DNA of 64,000 nucleotides from Thermoanaerobaculia bacterium (GCA_035524895.1 DATLFI010000265.1:1026-65025); one strand, 5' to 3'; positions 10,267 through 58,817 are shown, counted from the first letter of the stretch. The notes: a model not told the origin generated them from the letters alone. Translations and numbers: made by a program.

Positions 10267-10551
10267 GCTGCTAGCAGCCCGTGGTGGAACCCGCGTGAGG
10301 CTGCGCGCGGGGATCTGCGGCGGCTGGCAAGGCGTGGCCGACGAACGCGATGCGGTGCCATCGTGCAGGAGGCCCAACGCAGCCAGCGGCCGCAAACCCC
10401 CGCGCCCCAGGCGGTTGGGGCGGCGTGGGGCCATCTGCGGTGTTGCGCTCGCTCAGCGATGGACCCAGCATCGCCACCGCTCCCGCGCCTTGCATACGGC
10501 CCCACGGCGCTCCCAACGCAGCCCACGGGGGTTCCACCACGGGCTGCTAGC
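10267..10551. repeat. Full-length copy of a MITE/REP-like element: 24-bp perfect terminal inverted repeats GCTGCTAGCAGCCCGTGGTGGAACCC ... GGGTTCCACCACGGGCTGCTAGC around a ~235-bp structured core
   Basis: The terminal inverted repeats were read directly. The core (GCAAACCCCCGCGCCCCAGGCGGTTGGGGCGGCGTGGGGCC...CATCGCCACCGCTCCCGCGCC...CCCAACGCAGCCCACGGGGG) recurs at 14143-14372. It lies in the divergent intergenic region between the PQQ-ADH start and the gene at 10581. Confidence 0.7.
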
Positions 10552-10580
10552 CACTCCAGCCCTCACGCGAGGAGGTCAGC

Positions 10581-11678
10581 ATGAAGACGCGACGCGCGGT
10601 GCCGTTCGCGACGACCCTCGTCCTGGTCCTGACCGTTCCCGCTCTCGCTCGAGAGCGCGACGGCATCCCGCGCATGCCCGACGGCCGACCCGATCTCTCG
10701 GGCACCTACGACGTCTCGACGCTCACGCCGCTCGAACGCCCTCGGGAGTTCGGAGAGAACCTGTACCTGACACCGGAGCGGGCGACCGAGATCATGGAGA
10801 CGGAGCGCTTGCGCGTGCTGGACCGGGACCGGAATCGTGGTCCCATCGAGGAGGCGCCGCCGGAAGGCGGTGCGCCGCCGGTCGGGGTCGGCGACGAGTT
10901 CCGCGAGACCAGCGGCGCCGGCAACGTCGGCGGCTACAACAACTTCTGGACCGACCGCGGCACCGAGGTCTTCACCATCGACGGCAAGTTCCGCACCTCG
11001 ATCCTCGTCGAACCCAAGGACGGTCGCTATCCACCGATGACCGAGGAGGCCATCGAGCGACTGTCCCGGCGGCGCCAACTGCGTCGCCCCAACGACGGCA
11101 CGGCCTGGTGGCTCGAGGTCGACGGCCTCGGACCCTACGATGGGCCGGAGATGCTGGGCATCGCCGAGCGCTGCATTCTCGGTTTCACCGGTGCCGCGCC
11201 GACCTTTCCGAGCCTCTACAACAATTTCAAGCGACTGGTGCAGACGCCGGATCACGTGATGATCCTGATCGAGATGGTGCACGACGCGCGCGTCGTGCGG
11301 ATGAATTCCGAGCATCCGCCGGCGGACCAGCGGTTCTGGCTCGGCGACTCGATCGGCTGGTGGGAGGGCGACACGCTGGTGGTCGAGACCACCAACTTCC
11401 ATCCCCAAGGGGCGCCGCGCGGCGGGTCCGAGAACATGCGGGTGACCGAGCGCTTCAGCAGGATGGACGATGGCAACCTGCTCTACCGCTTCACGGTCGA
11501 CGATGCATCGGTGTGGACCGCGCCGTGGACCGGGGAGTACGTGTGGCGCAGCAGCGACGACAAGGTCTACGAGTACGCCTGCCACGAAGGCAACTACGCG
11601 ATGGGCAACATCCTGCGCGGGGCGCGCTTGCTCGAGGCGGAGGCGCGAGCCAAGGCGGGTCCGAGCAGCGAGGAGTAG
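10581..11678 (+). CDS. Secreted hypothetical protein (conserved-looking, family not recognised)
   Basis: ATG at 10581 with signal peptide MKTRRAVPFATTLVLVLTVPALA. Composition is non-junk throughout, with C-terminal YEYACHEGNYAMGNILRGARLLEAEA. It lies 18 nt upstream of the ankyrin gene on the same strand. Confidence 0.5.
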   Translation: MKTRRAVPFATTLVLVLTVPALARERDGIPRMPDGRPDLSGTYDVSTLTPLERPREFGENLYLTPERATEIMETERLRVLDRDRNRGPIEEAPPEGGAPPVGVGDEFRETSGAGNVGGYNNFWTDRGTEVFTIDGKFRTSILVEPKDGRYPPMTEEAIERLSRRRQLRRPNDGTAWWLEVDGLGPYDGPEMLGIAERCILGFTGAAPTFPSLYNNFKRLVQTPDHVMILIEMVHDARVVRMNSEHPPADQRFWLGDSIGWWEGDTLVVETTNFHPQGAPRGGSENMRVTERFSRMDDGNLLYRFTVDDASVWTAPWTGEYVWRSSDDKVYEYACHEGNYAMGNILRGARLLEAEARAKAGPSSEE

Positions 11679-11696
11679 ACCCGCCTCCGGCGAATA

Positions 11697-12842
11697 TTGC
11701 CGGCCGACAGGTCCTCGACCGAGCGGGGCAGGCCCGTGAGTCGTACCGAAGCACCTTCCTACCGCGCCTCGCTGGCGGAGTACGAGCTTCGGGCGGAGGC
11801 CCTGCTCGAGGACCTGCATGCCGGAGACGGCGCCGCGGCACAACGGTTCAAGTGGGAGCACCCGCGGTACCGCGACCAGCCGCTGCGCGCCGTGGATCCC
11901 GCGGAGCTCGGCCTCGATGACGCGCGGCTGGTCGTGGCGCACGAGCATGCGTTCGAGGATTGGCAGGATCTCGCACGGTTCACGGATGCGGTGCAAGCTG
12001 GCGGACCGGTCGAACGCTTCGAGCGCGCGGTCGAGTCGGTGGTCGCGGGGGACTTGGCGACCTTGCGAAGGATGCTGCACGAGCAACCAGAGCTCGTGCG
12101 GGCGCGCTCGACGCGGCGGCACCACGCGACGCTGCTGCACTACCTCGGCGCGAACGGCGTCGAGGGCGCACGGCAGTGCACGCCGCCGAACGCGGTCGAC
12201 CTCGCGAAGCTGCTGTTGAACGCCGGCGCCGAGGTCGACGCGCTGGCGGACATGTACGACGAGAGGTGCACGACCCTCAGCATGCTGGTGTCGAGCTCGC
12301 CTCCGGCGCAGGCGGGCTTGCAGGGAGCGCTCGCGGAGCTGCTCCTCGATCACGGCGCCGCGCTCGACGGCCCTGGCTCGAAGTGGCAGTCCGCGATCCT
12401 CACCGCTCTCTTGTTCGGGTTCCTCGACACGGCCCAGGTGCTGGCACGCAGAGGAGTGCGGGTGGACGACCTCGTGACGGCGGCTGGCCTCGGCCGGCGC
12501 AAGGACGCAGCCCGGCTGCTGCCGGATGCCGGCGGCGAGAGCCGCCACGCGGCGCTCGCGCTCGCGGCGCAGCTCGGTCACTTGGATGTGGTGGCGCTGC
12601 TCCTCGATGCGGGAGAGGACCCCAGCCGCTACAACCCCGAAGGCCACCACGCCCACGCGACGCCGCTGCACCAAGCCGTCTGGGCCGGACATCAGAGCGT
12701 CGTGCGCCTGCTCGTGGAGCGGGGAGCGCGGCTCGACATCCGCGACACGATCTTCGACGCCACGCCGCTCGACTGGGCGAGCTATGGTCAGCGGACAGAG
12801 ATCGCTGAGCTCTTGCGCCAGCTCGGCGCGCCGGAGCACTGA
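11697..12842 (+). CDS. Ankyrin-repeat protein (cytoplasmic)
   Basis: At least 5 ankyrin repeats, e.g. ATPLHQAVWAGHQSVVRLLVERGARLDIRD and HAALALAAQLGHLDVVALLLDAGEDP. There is no signal peptide. GTG 11736 is an alternative start. Confidence 0.65.
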   Translation: MPADRSSTERGRPVSRTEAPSYRASLAEYELRAEALLEDLHAGDGAAAQRFKWEHPRYRDQPLRAVDPAELGLDDARLVVAHEHAFEDWQDLARFTDAVQAGGPVERFERAVESVVAGDLATLRRMLHEQPELVRARSTRRHHATLLHYLGANGVEGARQCTPPNAVDLAKLLLNAGAEVDALADMYDERCTTLSMLVSSSPPAQAGLQGALAELLLDHGAALDGPGSKWQSAILTALLFGFLDTAQVLARRGVRVDDLVTAAGLGRRKDAARLLPDAGGESRHAALALAAQLGHLDVVALLLDAGEDPSRYNPEGHHAHATPLHQAVWAGHQSVVRLLVERGARLDIRDTIFDATPLDWASYGQRTEIAELLRQLGAPEH

Positions 12843-12972
12843 CAGTGTCGCGGGTAGTGGGTCAACGGACCCACTACCGTGTCGCGGGCTCGATCGGCCA
12901 CTTGGTAGGCTGCACACAAAGCGCTCCTGGTGGAGCGGCCTCGGGGCGTTGTCCCACGAGAGGGGGTGCCGG

Positions 12973-13845
12973 ATGCGACGTGAACGTCTTTGCCATCAGC
13001 GTGACTTGGTCGGGCGCTCCTTGGCGATCCGGTTCTCGAGAACATCGGCAGGGCTGGCGGCCGCGATAGCGTGCGCAGCGCTCGCGATCTCCTCCGCTTC
13101 GTTCGCGCGGCAGCCACCAGCGACGGCCACCAACGACGGGATCGCGTCGCAGCACCAGGCGATGTCGTTTCGCGCCACCGTGACCCAAGAGCTCCAGCTC
13201 GAGTACCTGTTGGCCCTGCCGAAGGGCTACGCCGAGGGCGGCGAGCGCTGGCCGCTGGTGCTCTTTCTCCACGGCGCCGGTGAGCGTGGCAGCGACCTCG
13301 CGAAGGTGGAGATCCACGGGCCGCCGAAGCTGATCGCCGCGGGGCAGCAGATCCCCGCGATCGTCGTCTCGCCGCAGTGTCCGGCGAACGAGTGGTGGAC
13401 CGCGGACACGCACCTGCTGGCGCTCGAGCGCCTGCTCGACGAGATCGTCGCGAAGTACCGCGTCGACGAGGATCGCATCTACCTCACGGGCATCTCGATG
13501 GGCGGCTACGGCACGTGGGCGCTGGCTGCGCGCCAGCCGGAGCGCTTCGCCGCGGCGGCGCCCATCTGCGGCGGCGGTAACGCGCTGCCGGCGGGGCGCC
13601 AGCTCCGCAACCTGCCGATCTGGGCCTTCCACGGGGACGCCGACCCGGTGGTGCCGGTGGCCGAGTCGCAGCGGATGGTCGATGCGGTCCGGCGCGCCGG
13701 CGGCACACTGGCGAAGATCACGATCTATCCCGGGGTCGGGCACGACTCGTGGACCCAGGCCTACGAGGACCCGGCGCTCTGGGAGTGGCTGTTCGCACAG
13801 CGTCGCAAGCAGACCGGCACACCCGCTGCGGGTGTCCGCCCTTGA
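12973..13845 (+). CDS. Secreted alpha/beta-hydrolase esterase (phospholipase/carboxylesterase / predicted-peptidase family)
   Basis: ATG at 12973: MRRERLCHQ...AAAIACAALAISSASFA signal peptide. Motifs LVLFLHGAGERGSD, nucleophile GISMGGYGTW and WAFHGDADPVVPV (Asp/His) are present. The track ORF starting at 12526 overlaps the ankyrin gene out of frame and is a spurious extension. Confidence 0.65.
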   Translation: MRRERLCHQRDLVGRSLAIRFSRTSAGLAAAIACAALAISSASFARQPPATATNDGIASQHQAMSFRATVTQELQLEYLLALPKGYAEGGERWPLVLFLHGAGERGSDLAKVEIHGPPKLIAAGQQIPAIVVSPQCPANEWWTADTHLLALERLLDEIVAKYRVDEDRIYLTGISMGGYGTWALAARQPERFAAAAPICGGGNALPAGRQLRNLPIWAFHGDADPVVPVAESQRMVDAVRRAGGTLAKITIYPGVGHDSWTQAYEDPALWEWLFAQRRKQTGTPAAGVRP

Positions 13846-13846
13846 T

Positions 13847-13894
13847 CAGGTCCCTGACTAGGTCCCTGAGTAGGTCTCTGACTAGGTCCCTGAC
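13847..13894. repeat. 12-bp direct tandem repeat x4 (TAGGTCCCTGAC-like) immediately after the esterase stop; each unit has TAG and TGA in two frames
   Basis: Sequence reads tcAGGTCCCTGAC TAGGTCCCTGAG TAGGTCTCTGAC TAGGTCCCTGAC TAGcgc. It is a perfect-period direct repeat with no inverted symmetry. Confidence 0.8.
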
Positions 13895-13912
13895 TAGCGC
13901 AGGATCTCGCGC

Positions 13913-14146
13913 GTGATCCTCGCCGCCATCGCACTCCTGGTCCTTGGCGTGGCTCTCGTCGGCTACGTCGCGAGGCAGGTGTACGGCTCTCTTCCCGGGG
14001 GAACTGTCGCGGGTCTGGGACACCTCTACCGTGGCGCGAACTTCTGGCTCGTGCTCGCCGGCATGATCGCGATCGCGGGGGGCCTCGCGCTCCTCATCGA
14101 CCTGTTGCCCGCGAGCTGGCAGTTCTGGCTGGGCGGCGCCGACTAG
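13913..14146 (+). CDS. Small (77 aa) two-TM membrane protein
   Basis: GTG start; ILAAIALLVLGVALVGYV and FWLVLAGMIAIAGGLALLIDLL are hydrophobic helices. Its stop TAG (14144-14146) is the first 3 nt of the CTAGGAGCCC repeat terminus. Confidence 0.4.
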   Translation: MILAAIALLVLGVALVGYVARQVYGSLPGGTVAGLGHLYRGANFWLVLAGMIAIAGGLALLIDLLPASWQFWLGGAD

Positions 14147-14372
14147 GAGCCCGCAAACCCCCCCCCGCGCCCCAAGGGGTTGGGGCGGCGTGGGGCCGTC
14201 TGCGTTGTTGCGCTCGCGAAGCGTGTGACCCAGCATCGCCACCGCTCCCGCGCCAACGCCGAGCCGCCGGTAGAGCCGCTGCAGGCGAAAGACCTTCCCC
14301 GCGCACCGCAGATGCATCCGGCCCCACGGCGCTCCCAACGCAGCCCACGGGGGTTCCACCACGGGCTCCTAG
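14143..14372. repeat. Second long copy of the MITE/REP-like element: termini CTAGGAGCCCG ... GGGTTCCACCACGGGCTCCTAG; core ~85-90 % identical to 10389-10551 with indels
   Basis: The core motifs are shared with copy 1. The left end is shortened to CTAGGAGCCCG. A ~60-bp insertion lies relative to copy 1 before the right terminus. Confidence 0.7.
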
Positions 14373-14466
14373 CGCCGGGCCGCACGCGGGCCGCTCCCCG
14401 AAGCTTTCATCCCGACGTCCGAATTCCGCCAGAAACCGAGGTCCGGCCGGGTCTACACTGCTCGCC

Positions 14467-16035
14467 ATGAGAACGCGGGCCATCCTTGGACGGCGGACGG
14501 AAGGCGACGAGTGGACCGAGCCAGAGCTGCGGCGGCTGGAGCGAGCGCGGCTGGCTCGCGACCCACGCTTCGACGGCACCTTTTTCATCGCAGTCGTCAC
14601 CACCGGGATCTACTGCCGCCCGGTGTGCCCGGCGACGCCGCCGAAGCCGGAGAACGTGCGCTACTACCGTTCTGCCGCAGGGGCTGCGGCCGCGGGCTTC
14701 AGGCCCTGTCTGCGCTGCCGCCCCGAGGCCTCGCCCGGCACGCCGGCATGGCTCGGCACCTCGGCTACCGTGTCGCGGGCGCTGCGGCTGATCGACGAAG
14801 GCGCTCTCGACGAGGATCGCGGCGAGCGCGACGACGGCCGGCGTCCCACCGAAGGGCTGGCGAACCGGCTCGGTCTCGGCGAGCGGCACCTGCGCCGCCT
14901 GTTCGATCGACACTTGGGCGCGTCGCCGGCGGCCGTGGCGCGCACGCGACGGGTGCATTTTGCGCGGCGTCTGCTCGAGGAGACTCCGCTGAAGATCGCG
15001 GACGTCGCCTTCGCATCGGGCTTCGGCAGCCTCCGCGCGTTCAACGAGGCGTTTCGAGCTGCCTATGGCGTCGCACCGCGGCAGGTGCGCACCCGTCGGT
15101 CCGGTGCGGGGCCGGCGCCGGCGTTCACGTTCCGGCTCGGCTATCGGCCACCAGGCGATTGGCCAGGGCTGCTCGGCTATCTCGAGCCGCGCACCATGCC
15201 CGGCGTCGAGACAGTCGAGGATGGCGCCTACCGGCGATTGATTCGCTGGCAGGGTTCGGCTGCAGTGCTGGAAGTCGCACCGGCTCCCGGCGGCAAGGGT
15301 GGCGCCCTCCAGACTCTGGAGCTTCGCCTGCACGCCGCGCGCCCAGGCGAGCCACCTTCTGCGAATCGGCTGCTGGAGCTGGTGACTCGAGTGAGGCGCA
15401 TGTTCGACCTCGGCGCGGATCCCGACGTGGTCGCGCGGACGCTGCGAGCGGATCCGCTGCTCGCGGCCAGGGTTCGCCGCTTTCCCGGAGTCCGGCTGCC
15501 GGTCGCGTGGGATCCGTTCGAGCTGGCGGTGCGCGCGATCCTCGGCCAGCAGGTCTCGGTCGCCGCGGCGACGACGCTCGCGGGTCGGCTCGTCGAGCGC
15601 TTCGGGGAGCCGGTGCCATCGAGCGATGGCGGCGTCGCGAGCGACGCATTGCACACGCTCTTCCCGACGCCGGCGCGCCTGGCCGAGGAGGACCTCGCCG
15701 TGATCGGTTTACCGCGCGCGCGCGCCGAAGCGCTGCGCGGGCTGGCGCGCGCGGTCGCCGACGGCGTGCCGGTGCTCGATGCCGGCAAGCCGCTCGACGA
15801 GCTGATCGGCGGGTTGTGCGAGCTGCCCGGCATCGGCCCTTGGACCGCGCACTATGTCGCGCTGCGCGGCCTGGGCGTGCCCGACGCGTTCCCGGCCGGC
15901 GATCTCGGCTTGCGGCGCGCGTTGCGTCGCGACTCCGGTTCGCTGCCGAGCGCCGCCGACGTTGCGTCGCGCGCCGAGGCTTGGCGGCCCTGGCGCGGGT
16001 ACGGCGCGCTGCTGTTGTGGCGGGAGGCGGCTTGA
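14467..16035 (+). CDS. alkA: AdaA-AlkA fusion: Ada Zn-binding (methylphosphotriester-repair/sensor) domain + AraC-type HTH + AlkA N-domain + HhH-GPD DNA-3-methyladenine glycosylase II
   Basis: Ada_Zn motif FFIAVVTTGIYCRPVCPATPPKPENVRYY...FRPCLRCRPE. AraC HTH ETPLKIADVAFASGFGSLRAFNEAFRAAYG. HhH-GPD segment WDPFELAVRAILGQQVSVAAATTLAGRLVERFGE...GIGPWTAHYVALRGLGVPDAFPAGD. Confidence 0.75.
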   Translation: MRTRAILGRRTEGDEWTEPELRRLERARLARDPRFDGTFFIAVVTTGIYCRPVCPATPPKPENVRYYRSAAGAAAAGFRPCLRCRPEASPGTPAWLGTSATVSRALRLIDEGALDEDRGERDDGRRPTEGLANRLGLGERHLRRLFDRHLGASPAAVARTRRVHFARRLLEETPLKIADVAFASGFGSLRAFNEAFRAAYGVAPRQVRTRRSGAGPAPAFTFRLGYRPPGDWPGLLGYLEPRTMPGVETVEDGAYRRLIRWQGSAAVLEVAPAPGGKGGALQTLELRLHAARPGEPPSANRLLELVTRVRRMFDLGADPDVVARTLRADPLLAARVRRFPGVRLPVAWDPFELAVRAILGQQVSVAAATTLAGRLVERFGEPVPSSDGGVASDALHTLFPTPARLAEEDLAVIGLPRARAEALRGLARAVADGVPVLDAGKPLDELIGGLCELPGIGPWTAHYVALRGLGVPDAFPAGDLGLRRALRRDSGSLPSAADVASRAEAWRPWRGYGALLLWREAA

Positions 16036-16100
16036 GCGACTCTCGGCGGGCTGCCGAGGGCGGGCTCCGAAAGTGGCAGAGATCTTCATCGGAGGACACC

Positions 16101-16613
16101 ATGCACCATCGAATCATCGACTCACCCATCGGTCCCCTGACTCTCGTCGGCGAAGGGGAGCGCCTGCTCGCGATCCACCTGCCGAAGCTGGGTCGAGCCG
16201 TGCCGCCGCCGCCCGATGCGGCGCTGGACGGCGGCGCGCTGGACGAAGCGGCGCGCCAACTCGGCGAGTTCTTCGCAGGTCGCCGGCGCGCGTTCGAGCT
16301 CGATCTCGATCCCCGAGGATCGGAGTTCCAACGACGCGTGTGGTTCGAGCTCGCCGAGATCGGCTACGGCGAGACGATCTCGTACGCCGAGCTGGCGCGA
16401 CGGGTCGGGCGTCCCGGCGCGGCGCGCGCGGTGGGCGCGGCGAACGGCCGCAACCCGCTGCCGATCGTGCTGCCGTGCCATCGAGTGATCGGCAGCGACG
16501 GGTCGCTGGTCGGATACGGCGGGGGATTGCCGGCGAAGCGCGTGCTGCTCGAGCTCGAGGGCGCGACCGCCGCGAAGGCTCCGGCGCAGTCGCGGCTGTC
16601 GCTGGCGTCCTGA
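16101..16613 (+). CDS. ogt: Methylated-DNA--protein-cysteine methyltransferase
   Basis: GGAGG RBS lies 7 nt upstream of ATG 16101. The active-site PCHRV motif is present in IVLPCHRVIGSDGSLVGYGGGL. It sits 65 nt downstream of adaA-alkA. The 700-aa track ORF 14511..16613 is spurious except for this tail. Confidence 0.85.
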   Translation: MHHRIIDSPIGPLTLVGEGERLLAIHLPKLGRAVPPPPDAALDGGALDEAARQLGEFFAGRRRAFELDLDPRGSEFQRRVWFELAEIGYGETISYAELARRVGRPGAARAVGAANGRNPLPIVLPCHRVIGSDGSLVGYGGGLPAKRVLLELEGATAAKAPAQSRLSLAS

Positions 16614-16752
16614 GCTGTTGACCGCGTACACTCTTGCGCTCCGCCGGGGGCGTGACCGGAGGCTCATCTCACCAGCCACGATCCCGACCGCACAGCCAAC
16701 CGCCGCCATCGGGTACCGGCCAACGACCACCGGCAATCCTCCTCCCACTGCG

Positions 16753-20932: not shown

Positions 20933-20960
20933 GGGCGGCCCGTGCCGCCGGGGTGAAGGC

Positions 20961-46335: not shown

Positions 46336-47019
46336 GTGGCTGGCCAGAGCCGGCCGGACCTCTTCCGGTGCGAGGGCTGCGAGGCCATCCACGAGAACTC
46401 CTTCGAGGGCCTGGGATCGAGCACCACGATCCCGCCCGCCGGCGAGCCTGGCGAGCGCATGGTCCTGCGCGGCCGCGTGCTCGAGCCCGACGGTGAGACG
46501 CCTGCCGCCAGCGTCGTGGTCTACGCGTACCACACCAACGCCGCGGGCGTGTACCCGCGCCGTGGTGACGAACGCGGCTGGGACCGACGGCATGGCTACC
46601 TGCGCGGCTGGGTGCTCGAGCCCGACGGTGAGACGCCTGCCGCCGGCGTCGTGGTCTACGCGTACCACACCAACGCCGCGGGCGTGTACCCGCGCCGTGG
46701 TGACGAACGCGGCTGGGACCGACAGCATGGCTACCTGCGCGGCTGGGTGAAGACCGACGGCTCCGGCGAGTATCGGTTCGAGACCATCCGTCCCGCGCCG
46801 TACCCTGGCGGGAGAGCGGCCGCGCACATCCACCTCACCGTCAAGGAGCCAGACCGCAAGGAGTACTGGATCGACGATGTGGTCTTCACCGACGATCCGG
46901 CGGTGACCGCCGCCTACCGAGCCCGTCAGCAGGACCGTGGCGGCTCCGGCATCGTCACACCCGAGCGCGGCGCCGAGGGCACCTGGCAGGTCCGTCGGGA
47001 CATCGTCCTCGAGCCCTAG
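46336..47019 (+). CDS. Intradiol ring-cleavage dioxygenase-like protein carrying an internal 45-aa tandem duplication
   Basis: C-terminal YRFETIRPAPYPGGRAAAHIHLTVKEPDRKEYWIDDVVFTDDP is an intradiol dioxygenase signature. GTG start. The stop TAG lies inside the palindrome at 47016. Confidence 0.6.
   Translation: MAGQSRPDLFRCEGCEAIHENSFEGLGSSTTIPPAGEPGERMVLRGRVLEPDGETPAASVVVYAYHTNAAGVYPRRGDERGWDRRHGYLRGWVLEPDGETPAAGVVVYAYHTNAAGVYPRRGDERGWDRQHGYLRGWVKTDGSGEYRFETIRPAPYPGGRAAAHIHLTVKEPDRKEYWIDDVVFTDDPAVTAAYRARQQDRGGSGIVTPERGAEGTWQVRRDIVLEP
46477..46746 (+). repeat. 135-bp direct tandem duplication x2 (2 mismatches), in-frame within the dioxygenase-like CDS
   Basis: Units 46477-46611 and 46612-46746 both encode VLEPDGETPAA(S/G)VVVYAYHTNAAGVYPRRGDERGWDR(R/Q)HGYLRGW. 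Confidence 0.85.
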
Positions 47020-47037
47020 GAGCCCACGGGCTCCTAG
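47016..47037. repeat. Short form of the CTAG-bounded element: near-perfect 22-bp palindrome CTAGGAGCCC-ac-GGGCTCCTAG
   Basis: 10-bp perfect arms. The first TAG is the stop codon of the dioxygenase-like gene. Confidence 0.7.
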
Positions 47038-47081: not shown

Positions 47082-47699
47082 ATGATCCCGGCACGCGAAG
47101 CACTCGAGCGACTGCGCGCGGGCAACCGTCGCTTCGTCTCGTCCATCACCGACAACGGGGCGGCGATACCCGCTCCGCGACGCGCCGAGCTGGTGCAGGA
47201 GCAGCGACCGTTCGCGATCGTGCTCGGCTGCTCGGACTCGCGCGTGCCCGCCGAGATCGTCTTCGATCAGGGCCTCGGTGACCTCTTCGTGATCCGGGTC
47301 GCCGGCAACGTCGTGGCGTCTTCGCAGATCGGCAGCGTGGAATTCTGCGCCTCGCGCTTCGGCACCCGGCTGGTGGTGGTGCTGGGACACTCGCAATGCG
47401 GCGCCGTGCTCGCGACCATCGAGGAGCTGCAGCGGCCCGCGGAGAGCCAATCGCGCCACCTCCGCTCGATCGTCGACCGGGTGCGACCCTCGGTCGAGGC
47501 GCTGCTCGAGACCGAGCTCCGCCACGATCCGGAGGAGCTGGTGCGCCGTGCCGTGCGTGCCAATGTCGCGGTGTCGGTGAATCACCTGCGATACGGCTCG
47601 GAGGTCCTGGAGCAGCTCATCCAGAACGAGGGTCTGGTCGTCGTGGGAGCCGAGTACTCGCTCGAGACGGGCGTGGTCGAGCTCTTGGAGGACGAGTAG
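47082..47699 (+). CDS. Beta-class carbonic anhydrase
   Basis: CSDSRV ... HSQCG zinc-ligand motifs are present (AIVLGCSDSRVPAEIVF, VVVLGHSQCGAV). Confidence 0.8.
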   Translation: MIPAREALERLRAGNRRFVSSITDNGAAIPAPRRAELVQEQRPFAIVLGCSDSRVPAEIVFDQGLGDLFVIRVAGNVVASSQIGSVEFCASRFGTRLVVVLGHSQCGAVLATIEELQRPAESQSRHLRSIVDRVRPSVEALLETELRHDPEELVRRAVRANVAVSVNHLRYGSEVLEQLIQNEGLVVVGAEYSLETGVVELLEDE

Positions 47700-48890: not shown

Positions 48891-48903
48891 GACGTTCTCC
48901 TTG

Positions 48904-50622: not shown

Positions 50623-50640
50623 CCTCTGCCGAAGGCTCCG

Positions 50641-51408
50641 TCACGCGCTGCCGCCCACTTCGCTGCCGCTGCCGTCGCCCAGCACGCGCGCCACGACCTC
50701 GGCTGGAAAGGCCTCGGCATGCACCCGGCGTCGAGTTTCTCGGTAGGGCCACTCGGTGCCGAGCGGGCGCCAGCCGTAGCCGTCCAGCAGGAGGGCCTGG
50801 GAGAGCTCGACCGCGAGCCGAGGGCTCGCGACTCCCGACTGCTCCAGCGGCGTGTCCGAGCGCATTAGATTCGAGGCGCCCCAGCGGCCCGCCCACAGCA
50901 CGAACAGCAGGTCCTCGGGGCAGAGCGGAGAGGGTAGGCGGAGGTCGCCCGCGGCGATTGCCTCGCGGATCACGCTGGTGCCGAAGCTGACGGCGCGCAC
51001 GTCGAGCACCTTGAGATCGTCCTGGCGCTCGCGGCTGGTCTTGGCGCGCAGCGATGTCGAGGCAACGAACAGCTCCACCGGCAGGTCGCGCGGGGCCAGC
51101 AGCCCTTCGACCTCGCCGATCGCGAGCATCTTCTCGCGCGGTCGTCCGCGGAAGAGTACCGCCCGCTCGCAGAGCCTGACGCGGCGCGTCTTGCTCTGGA
51201 TCGCCAGCGCCAGGAGGATCTCTTCCTTGCAGGGGAAGTGCTTGTAGACCAGCGGCCGCGAGCAGCCCATCCGCTCCGCGATGAGCTCGATGCCGAAGCC
51301 GTCCCAACCCAGCTCCAGGAACGCCTCGCGCGCGATGCAGAGGATCTGCTGGGTCCGAGAAGCCGGAGCTTCGAACGTGCTGACTTGCTCGAGCGGGGAC
51401 GCGCACAT
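50641..51408 (-). CDS. TetR/AcrR-family transcriptional regulator
   Basis: The HTH is GFGIELIAERMGCSRPLVYKHFPCKEEIL. The start is at MCASPLEQ (CAT 51406-51408) with GGGGAGGG RBS. It lies 18 nt upstream of the carboxylesterase gene on the same strand. Confidence 0.7.
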   Translation of the reverse strand: MCASPLEQVSTFEAPASRTQQILCIAREAFLELGWDGFGIELIAERMGCSRPLVYKHFPCKEEILLALAIQSKTRRVRLCERAVLFRGRPREKMLAIGEVEGLLAPRDLPVELFVASTSLRAKTSRERQDDLKVLDVRAVSFGTSVIREAIAAGDLRLPSPLCPEDLLFVLWAGRWGASNLMRSDTPLEQSGVASPRLAVELSQALLLDGYGWRPLGTEWPYRETRRRVHAEAFPAEVVARVLGDGSGSEVGGSA

Positions 51409-51434
51409 GCTGCCCTCCCCGAAGGGGATTACCC

Positions 51435-51442
51435 GTCTAGAC
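51435..51442. promoter_or_regulatory. Perfect 8-bp palindrome GTCTAGAC 27 nt upstream of the TetR start; candidate operator. A TTGACA -35-like hexamer lies at 51493-51488 on the minus strand
   Basis: Read directly. Location is in the TetR 5' region. Confidence 0.25.
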
Positions 51443-51577
51443 ACTCGCGAGGTTGGAAAGGTTTACCCTGTCGCGATGGTGACGAGTTGTCAAGTCCTGA
51501 AAACGGGAGCCAACAGGGACGAAGCTCGAAGCAGATCGGCGATCCGAGTCTGGTGAGTGACAGATTGCCACCGTCGG

Positions 51578-51593
51578 CCCACGGGCTCCTAGG
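51578..51593. repeat. Half-site copy of the CTAG-bounded element (CCCACGGGCTCCTAGG) overlapping the stop codon (CTA = TAG on minus) of the M50-like gene
   Basis: It matches the right arm of the 47016 palindrome, including the flanking CCGAG. Confidence 0.55.
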
Positions 51594-52515
51594 CCGAGGG
51601 GAAGATGCGCGACCGATTCACCGCGACGAGGTGCGCGGCGAGCGGCGTCGCGAGCACCGTCAGGCAGAAGAGCACCGCGACCACGCCCAGGTCGACGCCG
51701 AGGAAGTCGTCGGCAAGGCGGCTCAGGTCCATCCAGTGACCGCCTCCCTTTGCTTGCTCGTAGGTGCGGCGGAAGGCGGCGCTCGCGAGGAGCTGCCAGC
51801 CGAAGAGGGCGTCGCTCGCGAGGACGAAGGCCGCGCAGGCTGCGTAGGTGCCGCGCTCGACGGGAGGCCAGTGCACCGGCGCCAAAGCGCGGTAGAGGCA
51901 CACCCCGGCGAGCAGGAGCTCGGCGCCGTGGCCGGCCGCCAGGACCAATGCATCGTGGAGCGGTGAAACCGTCGCGACCAGGTAGATCGCCCCGAGCGCG
52001 CCGGCAGGCCAGCGGGCGCGCGTGTTGCGCAGGTGCCACGCGAGCCAGGCCACTGCGACTGCGGCGAGGTATGCCAGCGGGGTCGAGCGCCCGAAGTGGA
52101 TCGACACGCCGCCGCCGTAGGCGAAGTCGAAGACTGGGATCGTCGGGTACCCGAACGCCCATCCCATCGCGGTGTGTCCGAGCTCGTGGAAGACCACGAG
52201 CGCGTAGGAGAGCGCGTAGCGCGTGAAGGGCAGGATCCACCAGCACAGACCCACTACGAGCCCGACGCCGACGGCGCGGCGATCGAGGCGGGTTGTCTCA
52301 GCCACCACGTCGCCGCGCAGCGGCGCGCGCGGGCTCCGCGGCCGGCGTAGTCCGGCCGACACGACGAGTGCCTTCTCCAGGATCACGCCGCAGGCTGGAC
52401 ACTCTTCGGCACTGCCGATCGCGACGCCGCCCGGGATGGGCGTCGCGAGCGGCGCGGTGCACTTCGGGCACTCGGTTACCGGGGCCTCGGGCTCGGGGCG
52501 GTACAGGGATCTCAT
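51589..52515 (-). CDS. Membrane zinc-metalloprotease-like protein (HExxH in a TM helix, M50/S2P-like) with N-terminal CxxC...CxxC zinc ribbon
   Basis: N-terminal CPKCTAPL...CPACGVIL. The TM-embedded motif is LVVFHELGHTAMGWAFGYP. Start MRSLYRPEP (CAT 52513-52515). Confidence 0.45.
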   Translation of the reverse strand: MRSLYRPEPEAPVTECPKCTAPLATPIPGGVAIGSAEECPACGVILEKALVVSAGLRRPRSPRAPLRGDVVAETTRLDRRAVGVGLVVGLCWWILPFTRYALSYALVVFHELGHTAMGWAFGYPTIPVFDFAYGGGVSIHFGRSTPLAYLAAVAVAWLAWHLRNTRARWPAGALGAIYLVATVSPLHDALVLAAGHGAELLLAGVCLYRALAPVHWPPVERGTYAACAAFVLASDALFGWQLLASAAFRRTYEQAKGGGHWMDLSRLADDFLGVDLGVVAVLFCLTVLATPLAAHLVAVNRSRIFPSA

Positions 52516-52630
52516 GCCGGGCGTAGCCTTGGACGATGCGGAGCCCGTCCGTCGGGCACTTCCTTCGACGAGAGAACTTATCCGGTGGAGCGCCGTACCC
52601 ACCGTCGATTCGCCTCCGCGGAGATTCCCC

Positions 52631-54049
52631 ATGCCCGAGGGCAGAGAAGCAACGACGATGTTCGTGAACCGGCAGCGCCGGTGCGGCGCTTCGACGTTGG
52701 AGGCGCTGGGCCTGATCGCGGTGGCGATGTTGGATCCGGCGGCGCTGCTGGCGTCGTCCGAGGCGTTCGCGCTGCGCGGCGCGACGGTGCTGCCGATGAA
52801 CGGCGCGGCTTCTCAGCCGCGGCAGACCGTGCTCGTGCGCGAGGGACGGATCGAAGCTGTCGGCCCGGCCGGCGTGGTCGAGATCCCGGATGGGACGCGG
52901 ATCGTCGATGTGGCCGGCAAGTTCGTGCTCCCCGGTCTCGCCGACCTGCACGTCCACATCAAGCGACCCAACGCCGATGTCGAACGGCTGCTGGCGCTCT
53001 TCCTACGACACGGCGTGACGACGGTGCTCAGCCTCGACGGAGGACCCACCGTGCTTTCTCTCCGTGGGAAGATCGAATCCGGCTCGCGGCTCGGGCCACG
53101 TGTGTTCACGACGGGTCCGATCATTCGGGGCTCGGACACCATGACCCGCGAGGACGGCGAGAGGATCGCGCGCGAGCAGGTCGCTGCGGGCTACGACTTG
53201 CTGAAGGTCTACAACCAGATCTCTGCCGACGGCTACGCGGGGCTCGTCGCCGAGGCGAAGGGGGCACGCGTACCGGTGATCGGGCACGCGGTGCGCTCGG
53301 TGGGCATCGACGGCGCGCTTGCGAACGGCCAGCACATCGCGCACATGGAGGAGCTGGTCTACGGCTACTTCACCTGGAAGTCGAATGAGCGCGAAGACCT
53401 CCCCGAGGACGTGGTGGACCGTCTCGACCTGCTGCTGGATCCCGTCAAGGTTCCCGACCTCGCGCGCCGCGTCGCCGAGGCGGGGGTCTTCGTGATCCCC
53501 AACCTCACCGCCTACCATCACATCCTGCTCCAGGTCGAGGATCTCGACCGCGTGTTGGCGCGGCCCGAGGTTGCACTGATGCCTCGGCTCATGACGCAGT
53601 CGTGGGTGCGAGAGAAGAACGGCTACACCAACCGCGAGGATCCCGAACGGTTCCGTCGTGGTCTCGGCCGGACGTTTCCGTTCCTGCAGCAGCTCACCGC
53701 CGCGTTCCAGTCCGCCGGAGTGCCGCTGTTGCTGGGTACCGACGTCGGCATTCCGGTGATCGTCGCCGGCACGTCTGTGCACGACGAGCTCGAGGAGCTG
53801 GTGGCCGCCGGTTTGACCCCCGAGCAAGCCCTCGCGACCGCCACCCGCAACCCTGCGCGCTTCCTGGGCCTCGCCGACGGCGGCACCGTCGAGGTGGGGA
53901 AGCGAGCCGACCTGCTGCTCCTGGGCGCCGATCCGCTACTCGACATCCGCAACAGCCGGAGCATCGCGGGCGTCGTGGTCGCGGGCAGGTTCCTCGACGT
54001 CGAGGCGCTCGACGGGCTGCTCGCCGCGAGCGCGAGCCCGCCGCAGTAG
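52631..54049 (+). CDS. Amidohydrolase-family metal-dependent hydrolase (secreted)
   Basis: The beta-sandwich N-part is LVREGRIEAVGPAGVVEIPDGTRIVDVAGKFVLPGLADLHVHI (HxH metal site). The C-terminal segment is DVGIPVIVAGTSVHDELEELVAAGLTPEQAL. In-frame ATG 52667 is an alternative start. Confidence 0.65.
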   Translation: MPEGREATTMFVNRQRRCGASTLEALGLIAVAMLDPAALLASSEAFALRGATVLPMNGAASQPRQTVLVREGRIEAVGPAGVVEIPDGTRIVDVAGKFVLPGLADLHVHIKRPNADVERLLALFLRHGVTTVLSLDGGPTVLSLRGKIESGSRLGPRVFTTGPIIRGSDTMTREDGERIAREQVAAGYDLLKVYNQISADGYAGLVAEAKGARVPVIGHAVRSVGIDGALANGQHIAHMEELVYGYFTWKSNEREDLPEDVVDRLDLLLDPVKVPDLARRVAEAGVFVIPNLTAYHHILLQVEDLDRVLARPEVALMPRLMTQSWVREKNGYTNREDPERFRRGLGRTFPFLQQLTAAFQSAGVPLLLGTDVGIPVIVAGTSVHDELEELVAAGLTPEQALATATRNPARFLGLADGGTVEVGKRADLLLLGADPLLDIRNSRSIAGVVVAGRFLDVEALDGLLAASASPPQ

Positions 54050-54151
54050 GGGTCCACGCGGGCCGGCTAGCATCGTCACGCCGTGAGCAGCGCTCCGCAG
54101 CGGATGGGCCCTCGCTCCACGATCCCTCGATCGCCGCCAGGGGCCGCGTAG

Positions 54152-55021
54152 GTGGACCTGGTGGTCCTCGCTGCGGGAATCGGCAGCCGGTTCGGCGGCG
54201 ACAAGCAGCTCGTCGCGGTCGGTCCCGGCGTCGAGACGCTTCTCGACTACACGCTCTTCGACGCGGCCCGAGCCGGCTTCGCGCGTGCGGTGCTGGTGGT
54301 GCGTCCCGAGATGGATGACGGCTTCCGCCGGTGCGCCGAAGCTCGGTACCGCGGGCGGATCGCCGTGCAGGTCGTGGAGCAGACACTGGAAGCGTCTCCT
54401 TTGGGCGGCGGCGAGCCGCCGCTCGGGCGGCACAAGCCTTGGGGCACCGCTCACGCCGTTCTGGCTGCCGAGCAGGCGGTGCGCGGTCCCTTCGCGGTGG
54501 TCAACGCCGACGACTTCTACGGCGCGGAGGCGTTCGAGGCGGCAGCGCGGTTCCTGCGCGAAGGCCCGACCGCGTCCGGGTCGCCGGCCTGGGCGCTCGC
54601 GGCCTATCGCCTCGGTGACACGCTCTCGAAGGAGGGCGCGGTGAACCGCGCTCTCTGCCGCGTCGACGACGCGGGGTGCCTGGTCGACTTGCAGGAGCGT
54701 TCCTTGGGCATGCCGGATGCCGCAGGCGAGGGCGACTCGCTGGTGTCCATGAACTTCTGGTGCTTCGATCGAACCGTGTTCGACCTGCTGCGTACCGGTT
54801 TCGCCGACTTCGTCGCGACCGCCGACCTGCAGCACGACGAGTACCGCTTGCCCGATGCGCTACGAGCCGGGATCGCGCGGCGTAAGGCGCGCGTGCGGTT
54901 GCTGCGCCACGGCGGTCGCTGGTTCGGCCTGACCTACCCGCAGGACGTCGCGATCGTGCGCGAGCGGTTGCGGCGACTCGTCGAGCAGGGACGCTACCCG
55001 GCGAGTCTCTGGGCGCGTTGA
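54152..55021 (+). CDS. Sugar-phosphate nucleotidyltransferase-family protein
   Basis: The NTP_transferase signature is LVVLAAGIGSRFGGDKQL, with GTAHAVLAA. GTG start. Confidence 0.6.
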   Translation: MDLVVLAAGIGSRFGGDKQLVAVGPGVETLLDYTLFDAARAGFARAVLVVRPEMDDGFRRCAEARYRGRIAVQVVEQTLEASPLGGGEPPLGRHKPWGTAHAVLAAEQAVRGPFAVVNADDFYGAEAFEAAARFLREGPTASGSPAWALAAYRLGDTLSKEGAVNRALCRVDDAGCLVDLQERSLGMPDAAGEGDSLVSMNFWCFDRTVFDLLRTGFADFVATADLQHDEYRLPDALRAGIARRKARVRLLRHGGRWFGLTYPQDVAIVRERLRRLVEQGRYPASLWAR

Positions 55022-56766
55022 CTTCGCAACAGGCGCCAGAGCCCCGTTCCGCTCGCCACCAGGACCGCTAGCCATAGCCCGGCGAGGAACGTGCGGCCGT
55101 AGAGCGCGCTGCCCGTGCCGAACAGCGCGGCGTACACCGCCGTGCAGCCCAGAGCCCAGGCCAGGAACGCCTGGGGCAGGCTGTCGGGCGAAGGCGGTAG
55201 GCCGGTCTCGGCGCGCACTTGGCGCCAGCCTGGGCCGGCCGGGCGCACCTGCTCGTAGAACGAGCGCAGCGTCGCGGCGTCCGTCGGCGGCGAGAGGAAC
55301 GCGACAGCGAGCCACACCGTGGTGGTCACGGCGACCGAGAGCAAGAGCGCGTGGTGCGCCGCGATGGTGAAGCCCTGCCGTTGCGCGACCAGCAGCCCGG
55401 TGGCGATCACGAACGAGCTCGTCATCGCGGCGATCTCGCACCAGGCGTTGACCCGCCACCAGAACCAGCGCAGCAGGTAGAGCAGCCCGGTTCCCGCACC
55501 GATCGACAGCAACAGCGTGAAGGTCTGGCTGGCGGTGTCGAGCAGCAGCGACACCAGCGAAGCCGCGACCACCAGCAGCACCGTGGTGACGCGTCCGACC
55601 GCCACGTAGTGGCGCTCGGCGGCCCCCGGACGCAGGAAGCGACGGTAGAGGTCGTGGACGAGGTAGCTCGAGCCCCAGTTGAGGTGGGTGGAGATCGTCG
55701 ACACGTAGGCCGCGAACAGACCCGCGACCAGGAGCCCGAGGGCACCGTGCGGCAGACGCGTGAGCATGGCGGGATAGGCGAGGTCGTGTCCGATCAGCCG
55801 CGCGTCGACATCGGGCAGGGCCCGCGCGATGTCGTCGAGGCTGGGGAAGACCAGCAGCGAGGAGAGCGCCACGAGCAGCCACGGCCAGGGGCGAAGGGCG
55901 TAGTGCGCGACGTTGAAGAGCAGGGTGCCGGCGAGGGCGTCGCGCTCGCTGCGCGCGGCCAGCATGCGCTGCGCGATGTAGCTGCCTCCGCCCGGCTCCG
56001 CGCCCGGGTACCACACCGACCACCACTGCACGGTGAGCGGGATGACGAAGACCGCCAGCGCCACGTCCCAGCGGCCGAAGTCGGGCAGCAAGGCGCGGGT
56101 CGCGGGATCCACGCGCTCGACCAGGCCGGCCAGGCCGCCGACCTCGGGCTGACGCAGAGCGAACCAAGCCGCGGTGATCGAGCCGGCCATCGCGATGCCG
56201 AACTGCACCAGGTCGGTGACCAGCACGCCCCAGAGCCCGCTGGTGGCGGCAAAGACCACGCTGATGGCGCCGCACACGATGAGCGTTCTCTCCACCGGCC
56301 AGCCGAGGAGGGCGCTCGAGATCTTGGCGGCGGCGAGGTTGACTGCGGCCATGATCACGCAGTTGAAGAACAGCCCGAGATACACCGCGCGGAAGCCGCG
56401 AACCACCGTGGCGGCGCGACCGCTGTAGCGCAGCTCGTAGAGCTCGAGATCGGTGAGCACTCCGGAGCGTCGCCACAGCCGCGCGTAGAAGAACACGGTG
56501 GCCATGCCGGTCAGCAGGAATGCCCACCACACCCAGTTGCCGGCGACCCCGCCCTCGCGCACCAGGTTGGTGACCAGGTTCGGGGTGTCGGTGCTGAAAG
56601 TCGTGGCGACCATCGACACGCCGACCAGCCACCACGGCGCGGCCCGACCCGAGGTGAAGAACTCCACGGCGCTCGAGCCGGCGCGGCGAGCCAGGAACAG
56701 CGCGGGCAGGAACGACAGCCCGAGCAGGATCGCGACCAGCGTCCAGTCCAACGCGTCGAGTCGCAT
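54994..56766 (-). CDS. Sodium:solute symporter (SSS) family transporter
   Basis: EFFTSGRAAPWWLVGVSMVATTFSTDT is the SSS signature. ~13 TM helices. Start MRLDALDWTLVAILLG (CAT 56764-56766), overlapping the upstream stop as TGATG. Confidence 0.8.
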   Translation of the reverse strand: MRLDALDWTLVAILLGLSFLPALFLARRAGSSAVEFFTSGRAAPWWLVGVSMVATTFSTDTPNLVTNLVREGGVAGNWVWWAFLLTGMATVFFYARLWRRSGVLTDLELYELRYSGRAATVVRGFRAVYLGLFFNCVIMAAVNLAAAKISSALLGWPVERTLIVCGAISVVFAATSGLWGVLVTDLVQFGIAMAGSITAAWFALRQPEVGGLAGLVERVDPATRALLPDFGRWDVALAVFVIPLTVQWWSVWYPGAEPGGGSYIAQRMLAARSERDALAGTLLFNVAHYALRPWPWLLVALSSLLVFPSLDDIARALPDVDARLIGHDLAYPAMLTRLPHGALGLLVAGLFAAYVSTISTHLNWGSSYLVHDLYRRFLRPGAAERHYVAVGRVTTVLLVVAASLVSLLLDTASQTFTLLLSIGAGTGLLYLLRWFWWRVNAWCEIAAMTSSFVIATGLLVAQRQGFTIAAHHALLLSVAVTTTVWLAVAFLSPPTDAATLRSFYEQVRPAGPGWRQVRAETGLPPSPDSLPQAFLAWALGCTAVYAALFGTGSALYGRTFLAGLWLAVLVASGTGLWRLLRSQRAQRLAG

Positions 56767-58133
56767 CAGCCGCGGGTCTCCGGTTCGACGATGCGAAGCG
56801 GCGGCGTCGTGCGCCAGCGACCACGCGTGAAGTCGGGCACGTCGACGGTGCGGCTGCGCGAGGCCACCGAGCGTTCGGTGAGCTCCGCGATCGCGCTCCA
56901 GGACGCCGCGTCGTAGACGTTTTGGTCGGTAGGCCAGCCGTTTCGGAGACAGACCACCAGACGCCAGTCCTCCAGGAAATCCATGCCGCCGTGGCCCAAG
57001 GTGGCGCTGCGCGAGCGCTCCCAGCGCCATAGCGGGTGCTCGTGCTGCTCGTACCAGCGGTCGAGCGGCTCCCATGCGTGCTCGCCCGGAGTCGAGCCCT
57101 CGACGTGGATGCGGTCGGGCCAGCCCTGCATCAGGCCGCGGGTGCCCTGGAGCATGCCGATGCGGCTGTAGGGACGCGGGAGGTTGGTGTCGTGCACCAG
57201 GTAGATGGTCTGCCCGCGCACGGTCTGCAGCAAGGTGACGTTGACGTCACCGAGCACGTAGCGCTCCTCCCGCCGCGGATCGTCGGCGGCGAGGTGCTCC
57301 TGCTGCCAGAGCTGCAGCCCCCGCGAGGGCGAGCTCATCGAGACCAGGAAGTCGAGCTGGTTGCCGCGGTTGATGTCGAGACACTGCGCGATCGGGCCCA
57401 GCCCGTGCGTGGGGTAGAGGTTGCCGTTGCGGCGCATCGAGTGCGCTCGCCGCCACAGCCCCTCGCCCTTTGTCGAGAACTTGATGCCGCGAAGGTCGTG
57501 GGAGTAGGCGCACTCGGCGTGGAGCAGCTCGCCGAACACCCCCTGCCGCACGAGGTTCAGCATCAGCGACTCGCGCCGGTCGTAGCAGCAGTTCTCCATC
57601 ATCACGCAGTGCCGCGCTCGCCGCTCTGCGGTCTCGACGAGCTGCCAGCACTCGTCGACGGTGACCGCGGCTGGTACCTCGGTCGCGGCGTGCTTGCCGT
57701 GCTCCATCGCCGCCACGCACACCGGCACGTGCCACTCCCAGGGCGTGGCGGTGAACACCAGGTCGACGTCCTGTTCGGCGCACAGTCGCTCGAAGTCGCG
57801 CGGTCCGCGGTCGTAGCCGAGAGGCTGAGGCTGTCCGGCTTCGACCACACGCTGCTGCGCGCGCGCGACCTTCTCGGGCACGATGTCGCACACCGCGCGG
57901 ATCTCGACGCCCTCGATCGACAGGAAGTTCTCGAGGTGCACCGAGCCCATGCCGCCGATGCCGACCATTCCGAGGCGCACGCGCTCGAGCGGGGGAGCGG
58001 CGAGGAGTGTCGTCTCGGAGGCGAGCGCGGCCGGCGCTGGGACACCGGCACCGCGAACCTGCTGCCCGATCGCGGAGGCGCCGAGCGCGGCAGCGGCGGT
58101 CTGGAGGAGCTCGCGACGAGTCCGCTCGTTCAT
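56766..58133 (-). CDS. Tat-secreted Gfo/Idh/MocA-fold NAD-dependent enzyme, GH109-like (alpha-N-acetylgalactosaminidase-type glycosidase/oxidoreductase)
   Basis: MNERTRRELLQTAAAALGASA Tat signal. Rossmann RLGMVGIGGMGSVHL. The long C-terminal domain is typical of GH109. Confidence 0.55.
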   Translation of the reverse strand: MNERTRRELLQTAAAALGASAIGQQVRGAGVPAPAALASETTLLAAPPLERVRLGMVGIGGMGSVHLENFLSIEGVEIRAVCDIVPEKVARAQQRVVEAGQPQPLGYDRGPRDFERLCAEQDVDLVFTATPWEWHVPVCVAAMEHGKHAATEVPAAVTVDECWQLVETAERRARHCVMMENCCYDRRESLMLNLVRQGVFGELLHAECAYSHDLRGIKFSTKGEGLWRRAHSMRRNGNLYPTHGLGPIAQCLDINRGNQLDFLVSMSSPSRGLQLWQQEHLAADDPRREERYVLGDVNVTLLQTVRGQTIYLVHDTNLPRPYSRIGMLQGTRGLMQGWPDRIHVEGSTPGEHAWEPLDRWYEQHEHPLWRWERSRSATLGHGGMDFLEDWRLVVCLRNGWPTDQNVYDAASWSAIAELTERSVASRSRTVDVPDFTRGRWRTTPPLRIVEPETRG

Positions 58134-58291
58134 GGGTGAGGGGATTGCTGGTCGGCGATTCGCCGGGGTGCGAGCGAGTGTACCCTCAGTCCGAGGGCGG
58201 GCTGGGGCTAGGATTCTTGGTGCCAGCGGAGCTTGCCAAGAAGCCGCTCGCCGAGCTGCCTCGCCTCGAGCTCCACTGCCAGGAGCCAGCC

Positions 58292-58759
58292 ATGCCGCAA
58301 CCATTCTTCGCGCTCGTCCTTGCGCTCACGCTGGGTGCCAGCCCGGCCGCCGTCCCGCCGGCGGCGGAGCAACTCGACGAGGAAGGCTTCCGCAACCTGC
58401 TCGACCGTCTCGCGCGGGCGTGGCACGAGGGGGACTCCGCGCTCGCCGCGGGCTGCTTCACGGAGGACGCCGTGTACGTGGAGCCGCCGCGCAAGCAGCT
58501 CTACGTCGGACGCGAGTCGTTGTTCCGGTTCTTCGGCGGGGCTGCGGGTCGTCCGGGCGAGATGTCGATGACGTGGCGTAACGTCGTGTTCGACCCGCGG
58601 CAACAGTTGGGGATGGGCGAGTTCAGCTTCGCCTATGGCAGTCAGGTCCACGGCGTCGCCGTGATCCGAGTCGAGTCGGGCCTGATCGACCAGTGGCGCG
58701 AGTACTGGTACGAGTCAGAGCTTCCCTGGAAGGAGTTCGTGGAGCCAGGTGTGCCCTAG
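58292..58759 (+). CDS. Secreted SnoaL/NTF2-like fold protein
   Basis: AGGAG RBS. Signal peptide MPQPFFALVLALTLGASPAA. FRNLLDRLARAWHEGDSALAAGCFTEDAVYVEPP matches the NTF2-like/DUF4440 pattern. Confidence 0.5.
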   Translation: MPQPFFALVLALTLGASPAAVPPAAEQLDEEGFRNLLDRLARAWHEGDSALAAGCFTEDAVYVEPPRKQLYVGRESLFRFFGGAAGRPGEMSMTWRNVVFDPRQQLGMGEFSFAYGSQVHGVAVIRVESGLIDQWREYWYESELPWKEFVEPGVP

Positions 58760-58817
58760 CAGCCCGTGGTGAAACCCCCGCGCGCAGCCTCGCGCGGGTT
58801 TCACCACGGGCAGCTAG
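58756..58817. repeat. Short 62-bp form of the element: CTAGCAGCCCGTGGTGAAACCC - loop - GGGTTTCACCACGGGCAGCTAG, in inverted orientation relative to copy 1
   Basis: Its loop CCGCGCGCAGCCTCGCGCGG equals the reverse complement of the internal segment 10293-10312 of copy 1. TAG 58757-58759 is the NTF2-like gene stop. Confidence 0.7.

Follow-up and report, generated by a model that had tools for sequence, protein, structure and literature searches.

Do the short GC-rich repeats found at the ends of bacterial genes supply the stop codons of those genes, or do they come to rest on stop codons that are already in place? The question is raised by a stretch of 64,000 nt from a Thermoanaerobaculia bacterium (GCA_035524895.1 DATLFI010000265.1:1026-65025; approximately 70% G+C), referred to here as the window, in which an earlier note had described six related inverted-repeat elements bounded by CTAG, most of them thought to donate the TAG stop of the gene upstream. 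We checked all six sequences at their positions and found every one of them. Our analysis indicates that the elements very probably form a family of MITEs (inverted-repeat transposable elements of miniature size) that insert at and duplicate CTAG, landing on stop codons that already exist.

Five of the six sequences, designated A to E (Table 1), are related to each other as had been claimed. A, B and C have inverted ends and internal blocks in common. Element A proper (10275-10546) has 18-bp perfect inverted ends, CAGCCCGTGGTGGAACCC, and folds back on itself almost completely (-200 kcal/mol, z = -10.7). The 24-bp perfect terminal repeat previously ascribed to it does contain genuine inverted ends, which comprise 18 bp of element to which the 4-bp CTAG and one flanking base on each side had been added. 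A lies between divergent genes and not on a stop codon. B has in common with A a 93-nt block at 90% identity and the 61-nt right end at 97%, and has lost all of its left end except CTAGGAGCCCG. C joins the leftmost 42 nt of an A-like copy to the right terminal 22 nt, and forms a hairpin of -49 kcal/mol (z = -10). D and E have the 16-mer GCCCACGGGCTCCTAG in common. The sixth sequence, a hairpin between convergent genes, is a doubtful member, because only CTAGGAGCC matches the family and because generic hairpins of this kind occur elsewhere: a similar GGAGCC...GGCTCC hairpin follows a gene in a relative, L095 (Joint Genome Institute contig Ga0645783_00340), which is syntenic with window positions 45.9-59.9 kb at approximately 90.5% nucleotide identity. 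Translation of A and B revealed no conserved open reading frame (ORF) and no transposase remnant, and the copies in the window and in the rest of the family, 22-280 bp long, likewise have no conserved ORF. The motif CTAGSAGCC occurs nine times in the window, where 0.76 occurrences are expected, and none of 100 shuffles reached nine. CTAG itself is depleted (33 found vs. 92 expected), and these elements account for about one third of all its occurrences in the window.

The family is widespread outside the window. One genome per species was searched for the inverted end's 19-mer, GCCCGTGGTGRAACCCSCG, and at least 73 loci matched; approximately 8 kb was viewed at each, and the counts given here for other genomes are among the matches listed. 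Most loci belong to several Vicinamibacterales genomes, with dozens of copies per genome, and single matches were found in other Acidobacteriota and in one Longimicrobiales genome. Most of the matches are the ends of elements of 62-200 bp in which both ends are present. The ends, [C/G]AGCCCGTGGTG[A/G]AACC, are inverted over 18-25 bp in A, in C and in 46 complete copies elsewhere, and are conserved across classes. The Vicinamibacterales copies combine the same ends with an interior unrelated to that of A and B, so only the ends are conserved between lineages. Copies lie between ordinary genes and within operons, for example in the pilB-pilT-pilC-pilin and sdh clusters. A metagenome scan with a window-specific 21-mer from the right arm of A and B gave no matches, a plasmid BLAST search with element C gave only chance matches, and a viral-contig scan gave three chance matches, in coding DNA. 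No description of MITEs in Vicinamibacteria or Thermoanaerobaculia was found in the literature searched, in agreement with the earlier view of the family as undescribed. This is apparently a MITE family widespread in Acidobacteriota and without an existing name. The kind of element is well known, and repeat termini that coincide with TAG stops have already been published (PMC3733652).

We then considered whether the bounding tetranucleotide is part of the element. Conservation around the ends drops abruptly outside the tetranucleotide (84% at position -6, 35% at -7), and the element proper starts with [C/G]AGCCCGTGG. In 27 of the 46 complete copies the flanks are CTAG/CTAG, a pair that is uninformative as to direct or inverted arrangement because CTAG is palindromic. 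CTAG/CTAA pairs are also present, and TTAG is found at the empty counterpart of site C. Six intact copies have matching non-palindromic flanks, and all six are direct repeats and none inverted: GTAG/GTAG (loci L010 and L030), CTAC/CTAC (L001), TGTA/TGTA (L013), TCAG/TCAG (L042) and CTGG/CTGG (L032). Since an inverted tag would pair GTAG at one end with CTAC at the opposite end, these direct pairs identify the tetranucleotide as a 4-bp target-site duplication. The bounding CTAG therefore lies outside the element. The empty sites at pilB and site C, described below, contain a single copy of the tetranucleotide.

The coincidence with stop codons is not confined to the window. Of 118 ends inspected, 44 have a coding-type ORF whose stop falls between -60 and +90 nt, and in 20 of these 44 it lies at a single offset, -5, which places the stop in the flanking tetranucleotide. 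The earlier note had called for just such a tabulation of motif positions relative to stop codons. Either end of the element may face the gene, without bias (6 vs. 5). Three older, diverged copies (L036, L038 and L017, in OZ241843, OZ241896 and OZ241898) are flanked by CTGA or ATAA, in which the TGA or TAA terminates a long coding ORF at this offset; all three stop codons thus occur there. Within the window, elements are found on stop codons far above chance; all five C-preceded TAG stops carry one, and the remaining 14 of the 19 TAG-terminated genes are not C-preceded. The coincidence reported for five sites holds at each of them, with good support for the genes whose stops are at 58759, 47019 and 51589, and with support from coding-type G+C content at third codon positions (GC3) only for the ORFs at 14146 and 5120.

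Comparison with relatives lacking the element bears on which came first. A 200-bp copy separates pilB from pilT in the Vicinamibacterales genome OZ252008, in the context ...CTG CTC TAG/GAGCCC...GGGCTC/CTAG CGTGAACAGG ATG (slashes mark element boundaries); a Vicinamibacterales relative with 89% identity in PilB is empty at this point and reads ...CTT CTC TAG CGGCTGGGTGACAAGG ATG. In relatives further removed, the stop is TAA and the element is lacking. L095 has no family copy in 20.6 kb, compared with three in the window. At site C it reads GTG CCT TAG CTGGAGCCC, whereas the window reads GTG CCC TAG/54 bp/CTAG ACTCGTAGGAGCCC. Site D is empty in both L095 (GAG CCA TAG CGAGG) and a second relative, L096 (GAG CCG TAG CGAGG), and is filled in the window (GAG CCC TAG/14 bp/CTAG CCGAG). 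The proteins encoded upstream of C and D end at the same C-terminal residue as their orthologs. The presence of TAG at the empty pilB, C and D sites shows that the stop predates the element at all three. The proposal that the element supplies the stop is therefore not borne out, site E alone being different, as discussed below. Orthologous comparisons among the 73 Vicinamibacterales loci listed were too divergent or rearranged to provide clean empty sites.

Table 1. Elements of the CTAG-targeting family in the window and the genes whose ends they touch (positions counted from the first nucleotide of the window).
Feature	Position	Strand	Description
Element A	10271-10550		280 bp, counting the duplicated CTAG on either side (10271-10274, 10547-10550)
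Element B	14143-14372		230 bp; A-like with internal deletion and a 57-nt extra segment; left CTAG includes TAG stop of ORF 13913-14146
Element C	58756-58817		62-bp palindromic copy, CTAG + 54 bp + CTAG; left CTAG includes TAG stop of gene 58292-58759
Element D	47016-47037		22-bp mini form, CTAG GAGCCCACGGGCTC CTAG; left CTAG includes TAG stop of gene 46336-47019
Element E	51578-51592		Half mini form, GCCCACGGGCTC + CTAG; CTAG includes TAG stop (CTA on + strand, 51589-51591) of gene 51589-52632
Doubtful member	5097-5123		Hairpin GGAGCCGC-ttccggc-GCGGCTCC, then TAG
SnoaL-like (NTF2 family) gene	58292-58759	+	Pfam; 100%-identical database protein; TAG stop is target of C
Intradiol dioxygenase-like gene	46336-47019	+	Pfam; TAG stop is target of D
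Gene of a family without assigned function	51589-52632	-	308 aa in database version; real protein family; ends in CTAG of E
Predicted 77-aa membrane ORF	13913-14146	+	GC3 0.87; ends in left CTAG of B
ORF	5120-6136	-	Coding-type GC3 only; stop overlaps hairpin 5097-5123

The hallmarks of MITEs are present in this family: terminal inverted repeats, a duplication of fixed length (4 bp), and small, non-coding, multi-copy units that are polymorphic for presence or absence between relatives. The combination of 4-bp duplication, inverted ends, lack of coding capacity and presence/absence differences points to a MITE moved by a DDE transposase, and the repeat family of the earlier note can accordingly be described as mobile and of the MITE type. 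We propose that a DDE-type transposase would be supplied in trans and would cut its target with a 4-bp stagger, giving rise to a 4-bp direct duplication around each insertion. CTAG would be the preferred target; TTAG, CTAA, GTAG and a few further tetranucleotides would serve as well. In these genomes of approximately 70% G+C, CTAG is strongly avoided, and many of the CTAGs that can be used harmlessly consist of a C-ending codon followed by a TAG stop. Insertion there would restore the stop on the gene side and leave the protein unchanged, and would thus be tolerated. With the stop regenerated and the protein unaltered, copies would be expected to accumulate on stop codons.

Several observations weigh against this interpretation. 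First, neither an autonomous element with these ends nor a transposase turned up in the window, where all called genes were compared with Pfam, at the fetched loci or on plasmids; that the window contains no transposase had been stated before, and indeed none of its called genes has a transposase domain in Pfam. We infer the partner enzyme from the duplication alone, and the DDE chemistry is likewise putative. A 4-bp YTAR-type duplication would suggest a transposase of the IS5 group or an IS701-like one. IS5 generates a 4-bp YTAR duplication (PMC10359306), and MITEs derived from the IS5 group resemble the present family in being short and non-coding, with terminal inverted repeats and a YTAR-type 4-bp duplication (CTAG dominant, TTAG at empty site C, and CTAG/CTAA pairs). 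They differ in that some of the duplications seen here fall outside YTAR (TGTA, TCAG, CTGG) and in that neither a transposase of IS5 type nor a full-length parent bearing these ends was found. Duplications of exactly 4 bp are a hallmark of the IS701 family (PMC2266710), with which our elements agree in duplication length; however, the end consensus quoted for that family, ---YACT-Y--YR (PMC2266710), does not fit CAGCCCGTGGTG, and again no transposase was found. Second, stop-overlapping CTAGs at the Vicinamibacterales loci are occupied more often than intergenic ones: 17 of 25 carry an element, compared with roughly a quarter of intergenic CTAGs (approximately 37 free), a difference of about 2.5 times. 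This may be due to selection, and purifying selection rather than active recognition of stop codons would then shape the distribution. Third, at site E the relative L095 lacks the 15-mer and its gene continues GCC TGG TTC GTG TAA, whereas in the window GCC TAG leads directly into the half element. The TAG on the element side is thus a stop three codons earlier than that of the relative and is not at its stop position; this may reflect either a new stop three codons early or a small deletion that accompanied the event. Fourth, the 22-bp form represented by D recurs with a fixed junction in unrelated contigs, is too short to hold two transposase-binding ends, and is not explained by simple decay of a MITE.

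Some candidates for the missing parent were considered and rejected. The ORFs adjoining solo ends (L018, L022 and L067) are ordinary genes, and inverted pairs of ends 0.6-3.5 kb apart are merely neighbouring MITEs. A 1.2-kb repeat in OZ252008.1, present at L070 (2732-3943), L012 (3165-4380) and L058 (739-1955) in three copies that are 99-100% identical, is an IS630-family element with different ends. It contains a helix-turn-helix ORF and a DDE ORF, apparently joined by a frameshift, and two of its three copies have inserted precisely into the CTAG at the end of a MITE, duplicating TA.

The alternative that survives best is that the elements are repetitive extragenic palindromes (REPs), or the paired REPs known as REPINs, moved by a Y1 (HUH) transposase. 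NTAG would then serve as a guide or tag, and cleavage at CT on single-stranded hairpins would leave no true target duplication. There is much to recommend this comparison. GTAG-tagged REPs are reported often to provide the TAG stop of flanking ORFs, and Acidobacteria contain Y1 transposases flanked by long inverted repeats (PMC3733652); REP-associated tyrosine transposases (RAYTs) cleave at CT beside a hairpin, guided by the AG of GTAG (PMC8266576). Like the GTAG REPs and REPINs associated with RAYTs (Di Nocera 2013; Nunvar 2010; Bertels and Rainey 2011), our elements are GC-rich, palindromic, extragenic and abundant, occur inside operons, and have a terminal TAG that often coincides with the stop of a flanking ORF (PMC3733652). 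Furthermore, the 22-bp form is of REP size and recurs in many organisms, and conservation of the inverted ends extends across classes, which is also seen in REPIN systems of long standing. However, the tetranucleotide here is a variable, directly repeated target and not a fixed 5′ tag, the arms of most copies are not self-complementary REPs, and no ORF with the HUH..Y..NP signature of a RAYT was seen in the window, in the 73 loci listed (approximately 8 kb each) or in the contigs carrying the 22-bp form. Mobilization by RAYT or TnpB, which the earlier note had suggested, is thus contradicted by the 4-bp direct duplications and finds no Y1-type ORF in the window or the 73 loci, and we regard an origin as REPs as unlikely.

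It is less probable still that these are functional host sequences, either small-RNA genes or 3′-end hairpins (terminators or mRNA stabilizers) kept by selection, with the repeat structure being secondary. Such roles, which had been raised before, would be consistent with the very stable hairpins of A and C and with the placement of copies immediately after coding regions and inside operons such as pilB-pilT. On the other hand, the whole window has no Rfam match at gathering score, and A and B gave no relevant match even at E <= 1; neither a T-tail nor a promoter-like site was found at any copy, and no terminator-like site coincides with an element. The random orientation relative to the gene, the unrelated interiors between lineages and the absence of the element from all three sites (C, D and E) in the 90%-identical L095 also speak against a conserved small-RNA gene or terminator.

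Correia elements of Neisseria and IS630-derived MITEs such as Nezha are TA-duplicating elements of 100-160 bp with inverted ends of approximately 25 bp, present in hundreds of copies near or overlapping gene ends. The family described here differs from them in duplicating 4 bp, as well as in composition and host phylum. The possibility that our MITEs come from an IS630/Tc1-mariner element that inserts into TA, classically within CTAG, and duplicates TA only has the least to commend it of all: IS630-family elements do insert into and duplicate TA (PMC2170065), and the resident element of OZ252008 sits in just this way inside the terminal CTAG of these MITEs, but some duplications contain no TA (TCAG/TCAG, CTGG/CTGG), a TA duplication could not produce the GTAG/GTAG direct repeat, and the resident element has ends (GTGGTCCGTCACG...) unlike those of the MITEs, so this origin was dropped on the evidence of the paired flanks.

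The CTAG-duplicating MITE remains our favored explanation for the family; the 22-bp form deserves separate consideration. CTAG + CAGCCCGTGGGCTG + CTAG, a CA/TG variant of the 22-mer of D, was found with one fixed junction and approximately ten distinct flanks in 12 metagenome contigs of 56-74% G+C. About half of these contigs have a high-GC3 ORF whose stop coincides with one end of the form. None of approximately 50 elements in the Vicinamibacterales loci listed is of this form. It may be an excision footprint, the product of a recurrent hairpin deletion, or a self-spreading, REP-like unit. If it is a footprint, it would be direct evidence of cut-and-paste transposition with end-joining repair in these uncultured bacteria. 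Shorter motifs, CTAG-CG-CTAG and CTAG-AGCG-CTAG, occur directly beside family elements (L083 4316-4347 and L053 near 2720-2735) and could be minimal footprints of earlier insertions. A more speculative idea, to which we give little credence at present, is that the family is more than passive junk, with the 22-bp form being an excision footprint or REP-like unit and the preference for CTAG an evolved "safe-harbour" strategy. Such specificity may, in high-GC genomes poor in CTAG, steer insertions onto stops that the duplication regenerates.

Other features of the genes near the elements were also noted. The longest ORF of a pyrroloquinoline quinone (PQQ)-dehydrogenase gene (7528-10434, minus strand) reaches 160 nt into element A. 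Its Pfam domains begin only at residue 113 of a shorter version, and an automatic gene caller could therefore place the N-terminus too far out, inside the MITE. The start and ribosome-binding region of the gene downstream of C (window 58818-58845; L095 19527-19545), GGAGCCCGTTCG[G/A]TGAACG, is similar to the MITE end GAGCCCGTGGTGAAAC whether the site is filled or empty; it could be an old solo end that was recruited, or the similarity could be due to chance. The dioxygenase-like gene contains a 135-nt tandem duplication (46464-46733, 97% identical) that corresponds to an in-frame 45-aa repeat seen in none of 13 orthologs. A 12-nt tandem repeat of approximately four copies, GGTCCCTGACTA (13848-13897), directly follows the TGA stop of an alpha/beta-hydrolase gene, ends 15 nt before the 77-aa membrane ORF, and accounts for three of the 33 CTAGs in the window. 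Two whole genes of the window, an amidohydrolase (52583-54034) and a GH109-like oxidoreductase (56794-58162), are missing from the otherwise collinear L095. Two proteins of the window match database entries at 100% identity. Exact look-ups of the window proteins at 60542-61879 and 47082-47699 gave no match, probably due to start-codon choices that differ from those of the database versions.

Insertion at CTAG with duplication of the target provides a simple mechanical reason why repeats may seem to supply stop codons. Other tagged palindromic repeats of GC-rich bacteria may be open to the same reading. Claims that an element donates a stop need an empty-site control. For genome annotation, it is useful to know that copies can cause spurious ORF extensions, as in the case of 7528-10434, and copies can also serve as strain-level presence/absence markers in soil metagenomes. 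If CTAG does represent an evolved safe harbour, this would explain why the same ends have persisted for so long in genomes of Vicinamibacteria and Gemmatimonadota and in those labelled Thermoanaerobaculia.

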